Positions 2,985 to 61,290 of a stretch of 64,000 nt of DNA are shown piece after piece. Position 1 is the first letter of the stretch. Every line of letters begins with the position of its first letter. This stretch comes from Octopus sinensis (taxonomy: Eukaryota), in NCBI RefSeq assembly GCF_006345805.1, contig NC_043011.1:22704464-22768463 (forward strand). Reading direction: 5' to 3'. Both the position numbers and the translations under genes were made by a program. Below the pieces are notes generated by a model. That model saw only the letters and a program-made list of their open reading frames with translations, was not told the DNA's origin and searched no databases.

Positions 2985-3576
2985 GTTGCATTTTCACGCG
3001 ATTTTTCACCTTTCTACTGTTTATGCTTCACTCTTTGATCTCTGCAATATACGAAGAAATATATAATTAAGATTCCCTCACTTGTTTCTTTAGAGATGAA
3101 TGGTAAATAGTAAGAAGTAATTGAACTGCCTACATTAATCTAAATTTTCTAATCTAGCAGAAAGATGCAGTCTTAACAATACAACAAATCCTTCGCCTTC
3201 TGAAAAATGACCGACTTGCTTTCACTATGTATTAGTTATTTGTTAATTTCGAATTGGATATATCTATTTTTTCAGATCATTTTCCTGGTTGCCAAGAACA
3301 AGAACGCTATGTTCCCGGAAATATTTTATTTGTTACCGATTCTTGCATGACTTTGCTGAGTGTACAAGCCTTAATGTATTGTCAGCAGAAAATAGTCACG
3401 TAGAACAAACATTGCAAAGTAAATAATCGTTATGAAACGTTTCCTTACCCCTCTTCTCACGCTCTCTTCCTTTTCTTCCTTCTCTCTTTCCTTTTTCTTT
3501 CTTGCTTTCTTTCTTTCTTTCTCTCTCTCTTCACACACACACACACGTATATACATACATACCCACATGCATACAT

Positions 3577-3655
<79 letters not shown>

Positions 3656-3749
3656 CATACATATACACATACATACAAATATATATTCTTTTATTTATTT
3701 CATACGATTCAGCGCTAAGGCTGTGACCATGCTGGAGCACCGCTAGTGT

Positions 3750-4334
3750 AATTTCAATGGTCAATCTTATGTAATTGGCTTTTGGTGAAAGAGGCAGCTC
3801 GACACTGCTGCCCTCTTTTGAGTTTCCTGCCTTGATATAGGTTCATCCTCCATAGAACCAGCATAGTTTCCTGGTCCCTTGTTTTGAAGGTTCTCAGAAT
3901 CCATCTGGTCATTCGCCTGCACATGGCCACCATCTAGTAGGTGATCGTGTACGTGAAACGAGGCATCAGTCCCTAGATCACGCATGGTACGTGACTCTGG
4001 GATTGCAGCTTGTGAGCACCAATTAGCTGGTAGCGGGAACTTATATATATATTAGGTTGTCAAGAAAGTTCTTAGCAGGAACCTATATATATATATGCAT
4101 GTATATGCAGTTAAGTCTATATCCAGTCACAGAGTGACCAATAGTTTCGCATCCCTAAAGGGCTTAGCCCCATGTATGGCTCATCGGACTTTAAAGCCGA
4201 AGCTATTTATCACTTCAACTCTGAGCTCAGAGTTATATGACCGGACATAGACTTAACAGCATAAAAACACATTACTGCTCTTTACTGCTCTCAGCTTTAG
4301 TGTGTGCTTCTTTCTCGGATATGTAATACATTGA

Positions 4335-6410: not shown

Positions 6411-7636
6411 TACGAGGGTTGGCTGAAAAGTTTATAGGTTGACCAAGATACACTCACGAAATACTACCAAATGAGGTTTATTTTGAAACATACTCCCACT
6501 TGCAGTTTACACACTTCTTCCAGCGGTGTTGTTGTGCTTGGATCCAAGTGGTGAAGAAGTCATCAACAGCAGATGTGACGTCCTCATCACTCCGATACTG
6601 GTTCCCATCCAAGTGCTTTTTCGAGTTGGTGAACAGATGATAGTCAGATGGGGCCAAATCAGGAGAATAGTGATGGTGATCAACCAGTTCAAAGCCACAG
6701 TCACGCACAGCAGCCTTTGAAACCAAGGATTTATGTGCTGGAGCATTGTCCAGATGAAACAAGATCCCTTTCGTCAGTTTTCCTGGGCGTTTGGTCTTGA
6801 TAGCCTTTCGTAACTGCCTCAGCAAAATGGCATATTACATTCCATTGATGGTGTGGCTCTTTTGAAGATAATCAATAAATAAAATGTCTTTTGCATTCCC
6901 CATTGGCCTTCTTTAGAGCAGGTGAGGAGGGTGCTTCTACTGCTTAGATTGTCTTTTTGGCTTTGGCTCAAAGTGATGAAGTCAACACTCATCCTGGATT
7001 AGGAAACACTCAAGGAAACAAGCTGAATCTGCCTCAAACAATGTCAGATTTTCCCGTAGTGTGATAGCCTGGTGCGCTTTTAATCCGGTATCAGAAGGCA
7101 TGGCACCCACCGAACAGAAAGTTTCGTGAAACTAAGTTCATAGTGTAGAATATTCTTAACTCTCACACAAGATAAGCTAATAGCATTGGTTATTTGATTT
7201 ATAGTTAATCGCCTGTCATTCATCACCATGTGGTGAACACAATCAGTGTTTCCCCGTTGGTGGCACTTGCAAGATGTTAGATCTTGGGTCACATTCAACA
7301 CTCTCCCTTCCCCTCCTCCATTCGGCTGCCCCCTTTTGATAAAGCTAGAGCGTCATCCTCTGATATAATAACCATGTCAGCATGAATGTCCTTGGGGGCT
7401 AAACCCTTTTTTCTGCAAGTATTTGATAACACCACGATGACAAGTTTTGCCCATTTTCATGAGAAGTCGCTATTAGTTACTTTTGAAGTCTTCTTTGAGC
7501 AGTCAGATGTCAGTTTATCTTGAAAGAAACAATGCTGTTATTAATAAGAAGGATTGAAATTAACGTACGTAAGATTTCACAGCTTTAACATCACCCCTTC
7601 ATAGCTAGCTTAGGAACTTTTCAGCCCACACCCGTT
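6411..7636 (-). mobile_element. Near full-length degenerate mariner element
   Basis: TIRs TAcgagggttggctgaaaagtt / aacttttcagcccacacccg; WVP.LL, DNAPAH and YSPDLAPSDYHLF motifs, with frameshifts. Confidence 0.92.
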
Positions 7637-8894: not shown

Positions 8895-9415
8895 GAGCTG
8901 GCAGAAACGTTAGCGCGCCGGGCGAAATGCTTAGCGGTATTTCGTCTGCCGAGGTCGACTTTGCCTTTCATCCTTTCAGGGTCGATTAAATAAGTACCAG
9001 TTACCTACTGGGGTCGATATAATCGACTTATTCAGTTTCTCTGTCCTTGTTTGTCCCCTCTGTGTTTAGCCCTTTGTGGGTAGTAAAGAAATAGGTATTT
9101 CGTCTGCCGTTACGTTCTGAGTTCAAATTCCGCCGAGGTCGACTTTGCCTTTCATCCTTTCGGGGTCGATTAAATAAGTAGCAGTTATGCACTGGGGTCG
9201 ATATAATCGACTTAATCCGTTTGTCTGTCCTTGTTTGTCCTCTCTGTGTTTAGCCCCTTATGGGTAGTAAATAAATAAGTATTTCGTCTGTCGTTACGTT
9301 CTGAGTTCAAATTCCGCCGAGGTCGACTTTGCCTTTCATCCTTTCGGGGTCGATAAATAAAGTACCAGTTACGCACTGGGGTCGATGTAATCGACTTAAT
9401 CCCTTTGTCTGTCCT
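8895..9415 (+). mobile_element. Nin-domain tRNA SINE with a tandemly triplicated body
   Basis: Head gagctggcagaaacgttagc; core gccgaggtcgactttgcctttcatcctttcggggtcgat; units start at 8937, 9095, 9279. Confidence 0.85.
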
Positions 9416-25539: not shown

Positions 25540-25681
25540 AGCTTTGTACTCAGCCATTCGTAGTTTAGCCACTCCACCAAGCATAGCTTCAATTTTTAGT
25601 TTCACTGGTCGATAAGCAACTGGCAAGACTTCAATAGGAACTCCACGCTTCCACTTTTGGCCAAGGTTTTCAGAATCTTTT
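25540..25681 (-). CDS. RPIA: RPIA internal exon (RKDSENLGQKWKRGVPIEVLPVAYRPVKLKIEAMLGGVAKLRMAEYKA)
   Basis: G(V/I)PIEV motif; tgtag acceptor and gtaagt donor; 142 bp; phases match both neighbouring exons. Confidence 0.97.
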
Positions 25682-26054
25682 CTACAATAGGCATAAAAGA
25701 AAAAAATTTGTTTTCACTTTGTAATCCAGATAATAAATAATTTATTCAAAATATAGATATATATTTAAAAAAAAAAAAATAAAAGAAGTTACATATATTG
25801 AATTGAATATATAAATGCATCATCATCATCATCATCATCATCGTTTAGCGTCCGCTTTCCATGCTAGCATGGGTTCGACGGGTCAACTGGGGTCTGTGAA
25901 GCTGGAAGGCTTCGTCAGGCCCAGTCAGATCTGGCAGTGTTTCTACGGCTGGATGCCCTTCCTAACGCCAACCACTCTGCGAGTGTAGTGGGTGTTTTTT
26001 ATGTGCCATGCATAATACCGTTATATTCGTGAGTGGGGAGTATGTGTGTGTGTA

Positions 26055-26108
<54 letters not shown>

Positions 26109-26190
26109 GGTCCGGGTTGATTCGGGGTTAACCACAGTAAATAAGGTACTCAATACATAGTAGAGTAAAATTAATTTATTATATAGAAGG

Positions 26191-26241
26191 AGCTTCTACA
26201 GGACTAGAACTGTTTCATTCAAGAGAAATCTTCAGGAAGCT
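26191..26241 (-). ncRNA. Identical hammerhead ribozyme motif on the opposite strand
   Basis: Exact reverse complement of 30241-30291, within a 103-bp inverted repeat (26174-26276 / 30206-30308). Confidence 0.75.
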
Positions 26242-27989
26242 AGTTAACAAGAATTGTATTGGCATTTATACATTTAGGCAGGTTTAAAGGGGTGTTGGTG
26301 GGGGACTTTTTGGGGGTAGGCATAGCGCAAAATATCATACTTGGGGGAGTGGTCAAAGAGTCAGTGTTAAATTAGATAGAAGAATAAATAAAAAAATAAA
26401 AAAATATATAAAAATATATATAAAAAAAGGGGAATAGAGTTTTAGGTAAATAAGGAGATTCTCACTTATACCTATGCACATATGTATACATATATACACA
26501 CACATACAAACATATATACATATACATACACACATACGTACACACACACATATATACATATATATACACTTACACATACATATACATATCTACACATACA
26601 CATATATGTATACATACACACATACACACACTCACATGCATACACGTATACACACATGTATATATACACACATGTATATATACACACATGACCACACATA
26701 CATATACACACAGAAAAATATATATACACATACACACACATACTCACATACACGCATACACACACATATCCACACACACATATGCACACACAGCACACTA
26801 GTCCCTATATACACATATATACACATACACACACATATACACACACATACATATACATACATATATATATATGTATATATATATATACATATGTGTACCT
26901 ATGCATACCTACACATACACACATATATATACACATACAAATACAGACCCATTCCCTAATTTTAATTTTATTATCTTCATTTATTACTTTTGTTATCTTT
27001 GATCGCTGGTCACAAACATCTTGGCTATGACAGCCAGTCCATTTATCTGTCTACTGGAAAACAAGCACTCATTTACTCATGCACACTCTTTAGCACGTAC
27101 ACTCACTCATTCGCACACTCATACACATACACGCACGCGTTATATTCATACATACATACATCTACATACATTCACGTATATTCACATACGTACGCGTACC
27201 TACAGATTCATGTCTACACTCTTAGAAGGCTAGTCTATACATATACACCAATAAATATAAATACACACACATACATATACACCTACATACAAATACATAC
27301 ATGTATATATATATACATATACATACATATTCACATATATATACATACACATATATATACATATATATATATACATATACATACATATTCACATATATAT
27401 ACATACACATATATATACATATATATATATATACATATACATACATATACACATATACATATATATATATATATACATATACACACACATACACATACAC
27501 ACATACACATACATACGTATACATACATCCATACATACATACATTTATACACATACACACACCCACACGTATACATATACGTACATATATATACGCGCAT
27601 GCATACACATACAAATACATACACATACGCATATACATATACATACATACATATACAAATATACGCACACACATACATACATACTCATATACACATACAC
27701 GCACATACACATGTACATGCGTACCCATACACACACACACACACACGCGCATCCATATATACACATAAGTACACACATGCGTAAAAGTATACATATATCT
27801 ATGCTTACACATACACACACACGTGCCTCCTTATATTCATACTTACATGCATACTCAAAAAATAAGTAAATAGTAAAATATATATACGCGCAGTTATTCA
27901 TACATGCATACTCAAAAAATAAATAATAAATATTAAGTATATGTACGTGCAGTTACCTATTATATAGACGGATACATACATATAAACTT

Positions 27990-28058
<69 letters not shown>

Positions 28059-28279
28059 TACACACATATATATACATATACATATATACATATATATATA
28101 CACACACATATACACATATATATATATATATACATACTTACACACATGTACAAATACATACACACATAGATAACTCTACGTACCTACATATACATAAACA
28201 CACGAGCGTACACGTATATATACATATACACATACACACGCATATATATACATACATACATACACATACACACATATAC

Positions 28280-28332
<53 letters not shown>

Positions 28333-28807
28333 TATACATGTGTGCAAACATACATACATACTCATACACGCACACACACTTACATATACATATATACACA
28401 CACACACTTACATATACATATATACACACACTTACACACATATATATACATACACATATACATACATACATACATACATATATGCATACATACATACATA
28501 CATGCATACATACACACACACATATATATATATACATACATACACATACACATACATATACCTATATACATGTATATATACACACACATATATATACGCC
28601 TCTACAGTTTGTATCTACACTCACATACATGCACATACACATAACTCTACATACCTACATATACATCGACATACTCGCGTACACTCATATATATACACAT
28701 ATATACATATACACACACACATACATATACATATACATATATATATATATATGTATACACACACACACACACATATATATATATATGATCCTCGGTCGAA
28801 AATTTGC

Positions 28808-28868
<61 letters not shown>

Positions 28869-29180
28869 TTTCAGCTTCGCCTTGTATTGCATATTATTTC
28901 TCCATACAGGGGTTTTTTCAATGGCGGCCCATTTTCGCGGGGTTCCACTATTTCCCTTCTCTCTCTCCCTCTTTTACGTTGTCTGCCATCCCCCCTCTTC
29001 CTTTGCTAAGAGCATTTAAGCCAGCCCGTCATATTCCCGTGTCAGGCCGAAGAACGAAATGTTCCCAAGATAAGAGAGTCTTTCTAATCTAATGTTGTGG
29101 TTGAGCTGTTTATTATTTATTATTATTACTATTATTAGTAGTATTAGTATTGTCCCTTTGATCCTCGGTCGAAAATTTGC

Positions 29181-29226
<46 letters not shown>

Positions 29227-29888
29227 TTTCAGCTTCGCCTTGTATTGCATATTATTTCTCCATACAGGGGTTTTTTCAATGGCGGCCCATTTTCGCGGGG
29301 TTCCACTATTTCCCTTCTCTCTCTCCCTCTTTTACGTTGTCTGCCATCCCCCCTCTTCCTTTGCTAAGAGCATTTTTAAGCCAGCCCGTCATATTCCCGG
29401 TGCACCCGCCCTTGCCCACCCCCACCACCAATACCGGATATCTCTATATTTTTGCTCCATCTATACCGGATGTCGCTTCTCCCACCACCATTATAGGTGT
29501 CTACTCTTCGAACCCCCCTCTTCAATACGCTATTTGACCATGCATTACCCCTCTCTTGATATCCTACGTTCTACTTGCCTAGAACCTGTCATCATTTCTC
29601 TGAACCACCCCTCCCCACTGGTGCTCCCCTATATTTCTCCCCCCCCCCCACATAAAAAGCACCATCCGAACGTGGCCGATGCCAGACCCCTCTGGCACCT
29701 GTGCAGGTGGCACGTAAAAAACACCCACTACACTCGCGGAGTGGTTGGCGTTAGGAAGGGCATCCAGCTGTAGAAACACTGCCAGACTAGACTGGAGCCT
29801 GGGGCAGTCCCGAGCTCCCCAGACCCCGGTCGAAACCGTCCAACCCGTGCTAGCGCGGAAAACGGACGTTAAATGATGATGATGATGA

Positions 29889-29925
<37 letters not shown>

Positions 29926-30240
29926 CATACATACATGTACATATACATATACATACACACATATACACACACATACATATATCAACAATTGAGGGTAAAG
30001 TTAATTAGTTATTAATCAATTTCACCAAGTATTCAGTATGTAAAAGGACCATTATTTTTTTGAGTAAATAATGTCTGAGGGAAAATATTCTCTAAGTAGT
30101 GGAAGAGGCTAAAAAACTTTTTTGGCTGCTATTTCTAGAAAGTTCAGTGTGTGGCAAAGTAATTTATTTTACTAAGCCCTAATTATATAATATTTTATAC
30201 ATACATAAATGTATAAATGCCAATACAATTCTTGTTAACT

Positions 30241-30291
30241 AGCTTCCTGAAGATTTCTCTTGAATGAAACAGTTCTAGTCCTGTAGAAGCT
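30241..30291 (+). ncRNA. Type I hammerhead ribozyme motif in a Penelope-type terminal repeat
   Basis: agcttc-CTGAAGA-tttctcttgaat-GAAA-cag(ttctagtc)ctg-TA-gaagct: full core, 6-bp stem I, stem III, GUA cleavage triplet; stem II is weak. Confidence 0.75.
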
Positions 30292-30302
30292 CCTTCTATA
30301 TA

Positions 30303-30336
<34 letters not shown>

Positions 30337-31792
30337 TTAGTGTACATTTAAGTATTTTTCATTCCCTTTGAAATTGCTCTTAACTGTGGTTGGGACTTTT
30401 TGACTGTTCTTTCTAGTATGTTAGGCAACCTGTTACAGCTTGTACACTAAATTTTTATATGAAAATTATGTCTATTGACTTTGTATATATACTAGGTCAC
30501 TGGTAGAAAAAATTTCTATAATTTTTCTTACCCTACATTAATTTTACAAAATTTGGCCTCCGTGCCAGTGGCATGTAAAAATCACCATACGATTGTGGCC
30601 ATTGCCAGCCTCGCCTGGCCGCTGTGCCGGTGGCACGTAAAAAGCACCATCTGATCGTGGCCGTTGCCAGCCTCGTCTGGCACCTGTGTCGGTGGCACGT
30701 AAGAAGCACCCACTACACTCATGGAGTGGTTGGCGTTAGGAAGGGCATCCAGCCATAGAAACATTGCCAGATCAGACTGGGCCTGGTGCAGCCTTCTGGC
30801 TTCCCAGACCCCAGTTGAACCGTCCAACCCATGCTAGCATGGAAAGCGGACGCTAAACGATGATGATGATGATGATGATATATGAAATTATAGATTGCAC
30901 TCGCATGTACATTTATACACCTGTGGAACTTAATATCATGTAAACCAAATGCCTTTATTTTTCATTTTATATGTATATGCAGATCCTTAATGCTTTGCAT
31001 GGTACTGTAGTTCTATTGTTGTTCGTGTTTTTGTTATTATGTTGCTAACCGTGTGATGCATATATTGTTTTGCTAGTATTAGTGTTATTAATAATAATAA
31101 TAATGATATTAGTAGCAATAGTGGTAATGATAATAGTAATGATGTTAATATGAATGACATTTTGTAAATTAATATAATGTACTCTTGACTTTGTATGTCT
31201 GCATTTGAGTATTAATATGTGTATGTTTTCTACATTGTAATATCATAATATTAAGTTGAAAAACTGTAACATTGAATATGGAACATATGTTTGTATATTG
31301 ATTTATATTATTATGTATATGTATATATATATGTATAGGAGTATGAGTATATGATATATTATGGGTATGTACCCACACTTGTATGGGTGTGCCTACTCTG
31401 ATATTCATATTTGATTTAGTTTGTATTTCATAATCTCCGAAGAGGCCTTGGGATATTTTTGTAAGTGTCTCATTTATAACTACATACTGACCTATCACAC
31501 ATGGCTAATATGAGCAAAATGAGACACCCATATCTGCATGGCCGAAACAGCTGTAAGATGTAGTTTATATTTATATTTTTATGTTCTCTTATACATACTG
31601 TACTTATTGTACCATATTACTCCTTCATGTACACTGTTTTGTTCTATATTATTATGTTTGACCTTAATGTTCATATGTAGTGGTTTAATAAATTATGTGA
31701 TTGGGTATTATCTGGTAGTTGATAATTGATTTAGATGTATTTCTCCATTTTCTTATTTTGTATATATATATATATATACACACACATACACA

Positions 31793-43229: not shown

Positions 43230-44505
43230 TTCTGCTCATAAGAAAGGAACAAAACAATGTGACTGAAGGTCATAACACCTAGGCAATGCTGGGGGGGCAT
43301 TGCTAGTCTTAGATACATTAACAGTTACATTTATCTCAGTTTATGATCCATAATCTGGGCTGGCTGATGACCAGAAGGACCAACGTTATGAGGTTCTTTT
43401 GTAAACTACCTCAATGACAAATGACAGACTTGGTTATTGTGGCTGGTGACTTCAATGGAAATGCTGGGCAGCATCTCCATGGATTTCATGGTGTGCATGG
43501 AGGTTATGGCACTGGCTATAGAAATGAAGAGAGAACAAGGCTGCTGGAGTTCTGTGATGCAAATAATCTCGTTATCTGCAACACTAACTTCAGGAAACCA
43601 GCCAGCCACCTGATCACCTATCAGTGGTGAGCACATAATGTCAGACTGATTACCAGCAAGTTTTTAAAATCCTCACAAATGCAAAGTCTTTCCCAGGTGA
43701 AAAATGTACATAGATTACTAGATGGTGACTTCAAAATTAGAACTAGAAGGACTTGGAGAAATGGCATAAAGCCATAAAAACCATGCCAAAACAGACTTTG
43801 TTAGCACTGATGCCATGTGAAAAGCACCAAATCTACTCGGTCAAAGTGATTGGCAATAGTTAAAAAGAGTATCCAGCCATAAAAACCATGCCAAAACAGA
43901 CTTTGTTAGCACTGATGCCATGTGAAAAGCACCAAATCTACTCGGTCAAAGTGATTGGCAATAGTTAAAAAGAGTATCCAGCCATAAAAACCATGCCAAA
44001 ACAGACTTTGTTAGCACTGATGCCATGTGAAAAGCACCAAATCTACTCGGTCAAAGTGATTGGCAATAGTTAAAAAGAGTATCCAGCCATAAAAACCATG
44101 CCAAAACAGACTTTGTTAGCACTGATGCCATGTGAAAAGCACCAAATCTACTCGGTCAAAGTGATTGGCAATAGTTAAAAAGAGTATCCAGCCATAAAAA
44201 CCATGCCAAAACAGACTTTGTTAGCACTGATGCCATGTGAAAAGCACCAAATCTACTCGGTCAAAGTGATTGGCAATAGTTAAAAAGAGTATCCAGCCAT
44301 AAAAACCATGCCAAAACAGACCTCACCAGTGCTGGTGACATGTAAAAAACATGTTAACTCTGAAAAGTAATTGACATTAGGAAGGACATCCAGCTATAAA
44401 AACCATGCCAAAACAGACAGTAAAGCTTGGCACAGTCCTCTGGCTTGCAAGCTCCTGTTAAGCTGTCCAACCCATGCCAGCATGGAAAACGGATGTTAAA
44501 TGATG
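43230..44505 (+). mobile_element. RTE LINE remnant (endonuclease piece joined to a 3' UTR carrying a tandem array)
   Basis: AGDFNGN.G...HGGYG.G.RN.E..RLLEFCDA..L.ICNT.FRK; family tail. Confidence 0.85.
43771..44320 (+). repeat. Perfect 105-bp tandem repeat, five copies plus a partial
   Basis: Unit starts at 43771, 43876, 43981, 44086, 44191, 44296. Confidence 0.95.
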
Positions 44506-47839: not shown

Positions 47840-47973
47840 CTGTAATCAGCAATAATTATAAAGTCTTTCGCACATGAGGCAACAATCTTTTCTTGGAACT
47901 GACATGCACCACCACCTTTGATGCAATTCAGTTGGTTGTCAACTTCATCAGCTCCATCAATAGATATATCTAA
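47840..47973 (-). CDS. RPIA: Ribose-5-phosphate isomerase A, internal exon ([44 protein letters not shown])
   Basis: RpiA signatures DGADEV and KGGG..EK; tttacag acceptor and gtaaaa donor; 134 bp, phase 0 to 2. Confidence 0.97.
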
Positions 47974-60874: not shown

Positions 60875-61290
60875 GAGCTGGCAGAAACGTTAGCACGCCG
60901 GGCGAAATGCTTAGCGGTATTTCGTCTGCCGTTACGTTGTGAGTTCAAATTCCGCCGAGGTCGACTTTGCCTTTCATCCTTTCGGGGTCGATAAATTAAG
61001 TACCAGTTACGCACTGGGGTCGATGTAATCGACTTGATACCTATGTCTGTCCTTGTTTGTCCCCTCTGTGTTTAGCCCCTTGTGGGTAATAAAGAAATAG
61101 GTATTTCGTCTGCCGTTACGTTGTGAGTTCAAATTCCGCCGAGGTCGACTTTGCCTTTCATCCTTTCGGGGTCGATAAATTAAGTACCAGTTACGCACTG
61201 GGGTCGATGTAATCGACTTAATACCTATGTCTGTCCTTGTTTGTCCCCTCTGTGTTTAGCCCCTTGTGGGTAATAAAGAAATACGTATTT
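60875..61290 (+). mobile_element. Young Nin-domain SINE with a tandemly duplicated 184-bp body
   Basis: Units at 60917 and 61101 nearly identical; a third starts at 61285. Confidence 0.9.

Follow-up and report, generated by a model that had tools for sequence, protein, structure and literature searches.

The window, the whole 64-kb stretch of Octopus sinensis DNA that was analysed, contains on its minus strand a 142-bp exon of RPIA (25540..25681), which matches Pfam Rib_5-P_isom_A with an E-value of 2.7e-06 and lies downstream of the insertion described here. The next upstream RPIA exon ends at 47840, so the intron between them likely comprises 25682-47839. Two arms located in this region (26174-26276 and 30206-30308) are exact reverse complements across 103 bp; the identity stops there. 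A type I hammerhead descriptor, applied to both strands of the 64-kb window, gives two matches only, one per arm, in agreement with the original prediction of identical inverted repeats that each carry such a ribozyme. The first hammerhead runs from 26241 to 26191 on the minus strand, with a predicted cut after 26197 (GUA). This copy has the sense orientation of RPIA, and 510 nt separate it from the acceptor of the 142-bp exon, as had been proposed. The second (30241-30291, plus strand) is antisense in the RPIA pre-mRNA, and the descriptor puts its cut after 30285, likewise the position originally foreseen (3' of A30285).

Each hammerhead contains the CUGANGA, GAAA and NUH core elements together with stems I to III, all conserved among copies. 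Stem I has 6 bp, stem II has 3 bp plus a U-U opposition and stem III has 4 bp; loop III, UUCUAGUC, contains the palindrome CUAG, which had been noted in the DNA as CTAG. A hammerhead model or motif search had been suggested as a check. The descriptor bears the motif out, whereas Rfam at gathering thresholds gives zero matches to the window hammerheads; at E<=10, no hammerhead is present among the 150 of 154 matches listed. Rfam miRNA matches in the window were rejected as dinucleotide-repeat noise. In isolation, the motif folds no better than shuffled sequences (z 0.15), so that its support comes from the motif and its conservation in the family, not from folding energy.

The insertion had been assigned the interval 26174..30308. 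The arms remain as drawn, but the left boundary moves, as a 68-nt tail extends the insertion to 26106. From left to right, a (TA)n target microsatellite (26065..26105) is followed by this tail (26106..26173, minus strand), which the other arm lacks; (TA)n borders nearly all of the family ends shown. In full-length copies (L037, L074, L082 and L084), the tail lies between the pLTR and the ORF. Next comes the long arm, the 3' end of the element and of its pLTR (26174..26276, minus strand), identical to the inverted arm. The downstream part of the element's 3' UTR (26277..28786, minus strand) is made up of UG/UA-rich microsatellite blocks and unique islands common to other copies. A private nested insertion in a TA run of the UTR (28787..29890, plus strand) separates it from the upstream part (29891..30207, minus strand), where 5' truncation ends the element at 30207, about 310 nt before it would reach the ORF stop. 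Inside this upstream part lies an inherited head-to-head stub of an unrelated hammerhead tandem repeat (29979..30191, with 29979-30053 inverted and 30057-30191 forward). The inverted, tail-less short arm (30206..30308, plus strand) joins the long arm via a 2-bp TA overlap. The right flank of the insertion is again a repeat, by its sequence the (TA)n target microsatellite (30309..30333), and because both flanks are (TA)n, no target-site duplication is discernible. Two SINE copies, 25822-26008 and 30693-30879, are 91% complementary and enclose the whole insertion, making a second duplex possible in the RPIA pre-mRNA.

Copies were counted as exact pattern matches across the 2.72-Gb genome. The genome-wide count originally called for, run with the 43-nt hammerhead core, gave 1,991 exact copies, against 0 for the reversed control. 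Two end forms exist, each then followed by (TA)n: one with the 68-nt tail (1,597 exact matches) and one without (1,000, a lower bound, since tail-less ends vary). Pairing was assessed on C1 as far as 154.6 Mb, where 157 ends were listed, counting adjacent divergent pairs within 12 kb. Forty such pairs were found, of which 38 combine a tailed and a tail-less end, two have both ends tailed and none has both tail-less; the window pair follows this rule, its left arm being tailed and its right arm tail-less. A partner of this kind accompanies 38 of the 57 tail-less ends, where about 0.004 is expected by chance, while 19 of the 57 are without an exact-match tailed partner. The two arms could be two unrelated insertions of the same repeat that face apart by chance, or an assembly artefact, and the assembly does contain many 1-bp homopolymer indels. 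We regard this as extremely improbable: UTR and short arm meet directly at the 2-bp junction, the probability of such a neighbour is the same ~0.004, and family sequence is found in independent runs from three organisms. The original view of a single insertion, rather than unrelated repeats, is upheld by the same junction and chance figure.

The layout of these pairs is that of EN+ Penelope-like elements, with a pLTR from a partial tandem, an inverted 5'-truncated copy and a tail on one end. A tail on one side only, together with an inverted copy that is 5'-truncated, is described as a Penelope arrangement in the accessible portion of PMC8557442, and divergent hammerhead pairs are recorded from Schistosoma in that of PMC4209133. 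On C1 (124500797-124502800), three stub pairs of the Penelope-like family occur within 2 kb, either an insertion hotspot or a local duplication.

The interior of the window copy aligns with other loci at 82-98% over 26106-28786 and 29891-30207. One of these loci, L037, contains a complete unit of 5,671 bp on one strand, in the order tail, ORF, 3.3-kb UTR and hammerhead; in L074, L082 and L084, the order is pLTR, tail, ORF, UTR and pLTR. The ORF-bearing loci number 21, namely L037 and 20 taken from 115 protein matches, mostly top scorers with six of low identity. Of the 21, 18 have ORF, UTR and hammerhead in collinear order, and the distance from ORF to hammerhead, measurable in 18 loci, is 2,536-3,871 bp in 17 of them and 517 bp in L083. 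The latter (3213-3900) represents a sister subfamily whose UTR measures 517 bp, whose loop II differs and whose tail is the same, and it helps to root the UTR expansion. About 3 kb of the window copy's interior is 3' UTR of its own family, and its collinearity with coding Penelope-like copies agrees with the Penelope origin and pLTR hammerhead that had been proposed. The interior was also said to be devoid of protein-coding capacity. Its ORFs are indeed repeat translations or short frames, a property that this one copy owes to 5' truncation.

The original prediction went further and made the element a non-autonomous, retrozyme-like derivative with inverted hammerhead ends and unrelated microsatellite cargo. 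The window copy is non-coding, 22 of the 40 sampled pairs are ORF-less stubs with at most 152 bp between the ends, and according to the accessible text of PMC3846280 pLTRs can mobilise intervening DNA in trans. Against this, ORF-bearing copies have a UTR collinear with this interior, and in longer copies the ORF lies just upstream; pair interiors range from about 50 bp to 10 kb, as a truncation series; and the window locus has no head-to-tail short units. This explanation is largely refuted, and scarcely credible for the family as a whole. Non-LTR retrozymes are non-coding head-to-tail hammerhead units, and here an ORF is present and insertion is as a divergent pair. The idea of cargo survives in part: microsatellite does spread with the element, but it is the element's own 3' UTR and not foreign. 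In the accessible parts of bioRxiv 10.64898/2026.07.22.740005 and PMC7229834, animal non-LTR retrozymes also have a type I hammerhead and are Penelope-related; they are non-coding tandem repeats, whereas the family here encodes RT-EN and only the stub at 29979-30191 is such a repeat.

Alternating-dinucleotide runs make up about 45-70% of the UTR, and the UTR of L077 contains 18 runs of (TA)5 or longer. For an island about 1 kb into the UTR, 487 exact matches were obtained, and certain copies hold two. Complex 20-mers from the microsatellites are common to nine of nine family copies (0.05-0.87), compared with 0.00-0.04 for controls. One UTR block shows 446 matches in 448 aligned columns with L077, while the unique islands differ from that copy by 5 substitutions in 1,013 columns (about 0.5% diverged), indicating that the insertion is recent. 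By these alignments, the UTR microsatellite blocks are inherited, and not independently grown.

Two further elements are nested in the UTR. The best copies of the 1.1-kb segment 28787-29890 are 95-100% identical and lie in unrelated flanks, and the segment is absent from L037. As family cargo it was rejected, since seven of the seven other full copies examined lie outside the Penelope-like element; by its sequence, it is a separate young element that entered a TA run of the UTR in this copy only. It consists of a tandem unit of about 360 bp with (TTA)n, a 240-bp middle part and a SINE-like 3' end with (ATG)n. Its relatives (L092-L098) contain up to about 15 tandem 360-bp units with (TTA)n, the 240-bp part and the SINE-like (ATG)n end, are variably 5'-truncated and, in L093, have an inverted 5' junction.

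The second, the island 29979-30191, has 384 exact probe matches, many of them in short inverted pairs or ~565-bp tandems elsewhere. Ten such loci (L131-L140) contain an unrelated, non-coding tandem repeat of 563-569 bp, with its own hammerhead in seven of the ten. This repeat is likely a retrozyme with Penelope-style head-to-head insertions, of which 29979-30191 is, on sequence comparison, a miniature. Of 20 ORF-bearing loci tested, 11 have the stub junction as well. In a UTR tree that is midpoint-rooted only, the three deepest-branching of the tested loci and the five members of one nested clade lack it, a distribution consistent with one capture and one later loss. In L133 and L137, the 563-569-bp repeat adjoins ends of the Penelope-like family. 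L077 also contains, at about 7014-7075 (plus strand) and just downstream of the family copy, another type I hammerhead, which is unrelated and has a stem I of 7 bp.

As in EN+ Penelope-like elements, longer family copies, though not the window copy, contain a single ORF with RT and C-terminal GIY-YIG. Its motifs are RWR, DKT, GLYRDD, a CNCX5C linker (CNCPDKTTC), VY...YIG, CDLC and CMH; RWR and DKT align with RWK/RWR and DKT/DKS in the homologues. Seventeen homologues of 669-738 aa were found, with 37-42% match and E<=3.6e-53, while a Pfam search of the ORF gave neither an RT nor a GIY-YIG domain and a PDB search gave no significant relative. None of the translations examined is an unbroken full-length ORF, the longest (652 and 675 residues) being 5'-truncated. 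The many 1-bp indels look like assembly errors, so autonomy is deduced from near-intact copies.

The accessible part of PMC8557442 lists RWK/DKT, CxCX5C, CxxC and CxH as features of the Hydra clade. The family ORF has the CxCX5C linker and has CxxC and CxH around a conserved E and N, with CCHH absent on inspection by eye; a canonical hammerhead is located near the 3' end and insertion is into (TA)n. That account of the clade is matched in the C-terminal GIY-YIG, RW[K/R], DKT, CxCX5C linker, CxxC and CxH, and equally in the (TA)n target, the 3' type I hammerhead of the same layout, the inverted 5'-truncated copy and the one-sided tail. A length below 3 kb, typical of the clade but not diagnostic, is exceeded by the 5,671-bp L037 unit. 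Consensus lengths given there are 1,080-3,045 bp, against about 5.7 kb here with a UTR of 2.5-3.9 kb, and tails are 30-40 nt long instead of 68 nt; the family here also differs in a stem II of only 3 bp and a loop III of 8 nt. The family thus has Hydra-clade motifs, an assignment based on motifs and homologues. Identity with Hydra-1_Obim, as far as PMC8557442 presents it, was rejected by eye, as protein N-terminus and hammerhead both differ. Recently active Penelope-like families of Octopus vulgaris are counted, without description, in the accessible part of PMC13282606, whose repeat library may hold the family. In the literature as searched, mostly available in part, neither the family nor a microsatellite UTR in a Hydra element is described. 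The coding Penelope-like family is new within a known clade, and its insertion footprint is known as well; what is unusual is its long, inherited, target-like UTR, which collects other elements.

Taken together, the locus most probably (at a rough probability of 0.88) arose when a coding Penelope-like retrotransposon with Hydra-clade motifs inserted recently, in 5'-truncated form, into a TA microsatellite of the RPIA intron, likely by way of two reverse-transcription events. The element's endonuclease would cut both strands of (TA)n, and one cDNA would be primed from each cut target strand on RNA of one source element. The first cDNA would start at the tail site and run about 3 kb into the UTR, while the second would start at the inner site and stop after 103 nt, the two being joined by microhomology at the 2-bp TA overlap. 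Since each cDNA would begin just beyond the pLTR ribozyme, both arms would include a hammerhead. Being rich in TA, the UTR would in turn be a likely landing pad, which took the retrozyme stub that was later passed on and, in this copy, also the SINE-tailed element. We infer this two-cDNA origin from the two fixed start sites, the overlapping arms and the concordance of variants at hammerhead position N7. The last was scored by eye in 23 pairs, with 21 A/A, two T/T and none discordant, so that all 23 agree but the variant itself is present in only two.

The main rival to the two-cDNA origin places the same family at the locus and derives the inverted arm from fold-back or self-priming on one template, or from template switching. 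In its favour, the junctions of stubs are concentrated at the stem I palindrome AGCT, 38-45 nt upstream of the cut, the concordance of variants would equally fit one template, and self-priming is proposed in the accessible part of PMC3846280. Nevertheless, it appears unlikely, given that 38 of 40 pairs have arms terminating at two different fixed sites, that both arms can be kilobases long and overlapping, and that another Penelope element, in the available sections of PMC11167929, shows in vitro two RT start sites, cleavage of both strands and two primed strands, along with a protein-assisted hammerhead. That element, Poseidon PAc of Anolis, resembles the family here in the two RT start sites that delimit the tail, in AT-rich targets and in the extension of both strands. 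It belongs to another clade, and its hammerhead overlaps the ORF start.

Most copies hold an uncut ribozyme motif. Variation was inspected by eye in 100 of 1,357 flank-anchored hammerhead copies. The dominant recurrent substitution, A>T at the free core position N7, occurs in 10 of the 100; a pair-breaking G>A in stem III occurs in two or three, and the remainder are mostly single indels. In run X1, the sites varying in at least 3% are N7 and one loop III site within 51 nt, as against seven in the adjacent 54 nt. The expectation that the core would be conserved among genomic copies is thereby borne out, variation falling mainly at the free position. No compensatory pair changes were seen among the hammerhead copies, because the family is too young. 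Fourteen tailed ends have a non-A before the cut: nine are true starts at the cut and five are mutated full motifs, with control positions giving 0/9 and 0/9. Microhomology of the 6-bp stem I can explain six of the nine cut-site starts; of the three it cannot, two have both arms starting at or within one base of the cut. By these starts, cleaved RNA was likely the source of a small minority of copies. In the accessible account of PAc (PMC11167929), the hammerhead is dispensable and protein-assisted, to which the family here may be likened, and the predominance of uncut copies is in line with such a ribozyme; reads that end at the cut are absent for PAc, but a few genomic copies of the family here start there.

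The active hammerhead fold is predicted at a frequency of about 0.02 alone and of 1e-4 to 3e-4 with downstream sequence, which is predicted to form a hairpin over the cut site that competes with stem I. Probably, the ribozyme has weak activity and is retained in source elements. Penelope-like hammerheads had been noted as able to act as dimers; the two in the window are encoded by opposite strands, which excludes dimerisation in a single transcript. Unlike such an in-cis dimer, an intermolecular loop III duplex may be possible, with a predicted -13.4 kcal/mol; a natural U>A variant in loop III lengthens the palindrome and strengthens the predicted duplex to -15.8 kcal/mol.

Cephalopods show heavy A-to-I editing. 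A functional role in RPIA, in which the sense hammerhead self-cleaves near the acceptor or the 103-bp duplex is edited by ADAR, would draw on this, on the intact sense ribozyme 510 nt from the acceptor and on the perfect duplex of the arms, predicted at -173 kcal/mol across 3.9 kb. One RPIA transcript contains one sense and one antisense hammerhead, the antisense arm preceding the sense arm on the minus strand. A perfect 103-bp masking duplex could form in this way; any pair with this geometry would allow one, without selection. With the antisense arm already transcribed when the ribozyme is made, and with the downstream hairpin competing with stem I, the hammerhead is predicted to be mostly silent in the RPIA pre-mRNA. 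In contigs that pool all copies and are possibly derived from RNA, there is no excess of A>G or T>C. A regulatory role is very unlikely since the insertion is so recent: it is about 0.5% diverged from a sibling and one of more than 1,000 alike, the predicted frequency of the active fold is low both alone and in context, and youth explains the identity of the arms. The RPIA-intron locus itself is an ordinary Penelope footprint. Retrozymes are reported to be excluded from introns in the accessible part of bioRxiv 10.64898/2026.07.22.740005.

Long or repeat-rich spacers are known from other Penelope elements, as far as the sources are accessible. Pen1_Av of Adineta vaga has a long captured spacer of 0.9-1.5 kb before the 3' pLTR (PMC3846280), and shrimp Penelope elements, with consensus sequences of up to 7.6 kb (PMC3124438), carry SSRs, so that microsatellites move with the element (PMC7878876). 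The spacer here, by comparison, measures about 3 kb; it is built from the target sequence of the element itself, is passed on stably and harbours an inherited retrozyme stub. What looks like kilobases of simple repeat in this genome is retrotransposed UTR, which simple-repeat masking would hide, and a microsatellite UTR can gather other elements and hand them on. A wider proposal, which we offer tentatively and hold to be rather doubtful, is that a TA-targeting retrotransposon evolved a multi-kilobase target-like 3' UTR, that microsatellites and hitch-hikers spread with it in a self-reinforcing manner and that the head-to-head antisense arm shelters intronic hammerheads. If so, each long copy would plant about 18 new (TA)5+ sites together with stubs of other TA-targeting ribozyme elements, and the antisense arm, lying upstream of the ribozyme in host transcripts of either orientation, would let catalytically competent hammerheads persist in introns. 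The family is young and abundant enough for testing how Penelope inverted ends form and whether pLTR hammerheads cut in vivo.

Elsewhere in the window, the RPIA intron contains a perfect tandem array (43770-44321; 105 bp × 5.3, 100% identical), and two arrays of a similar 184-bp tandem unit are located at 8948-9415 and 60916-61290.
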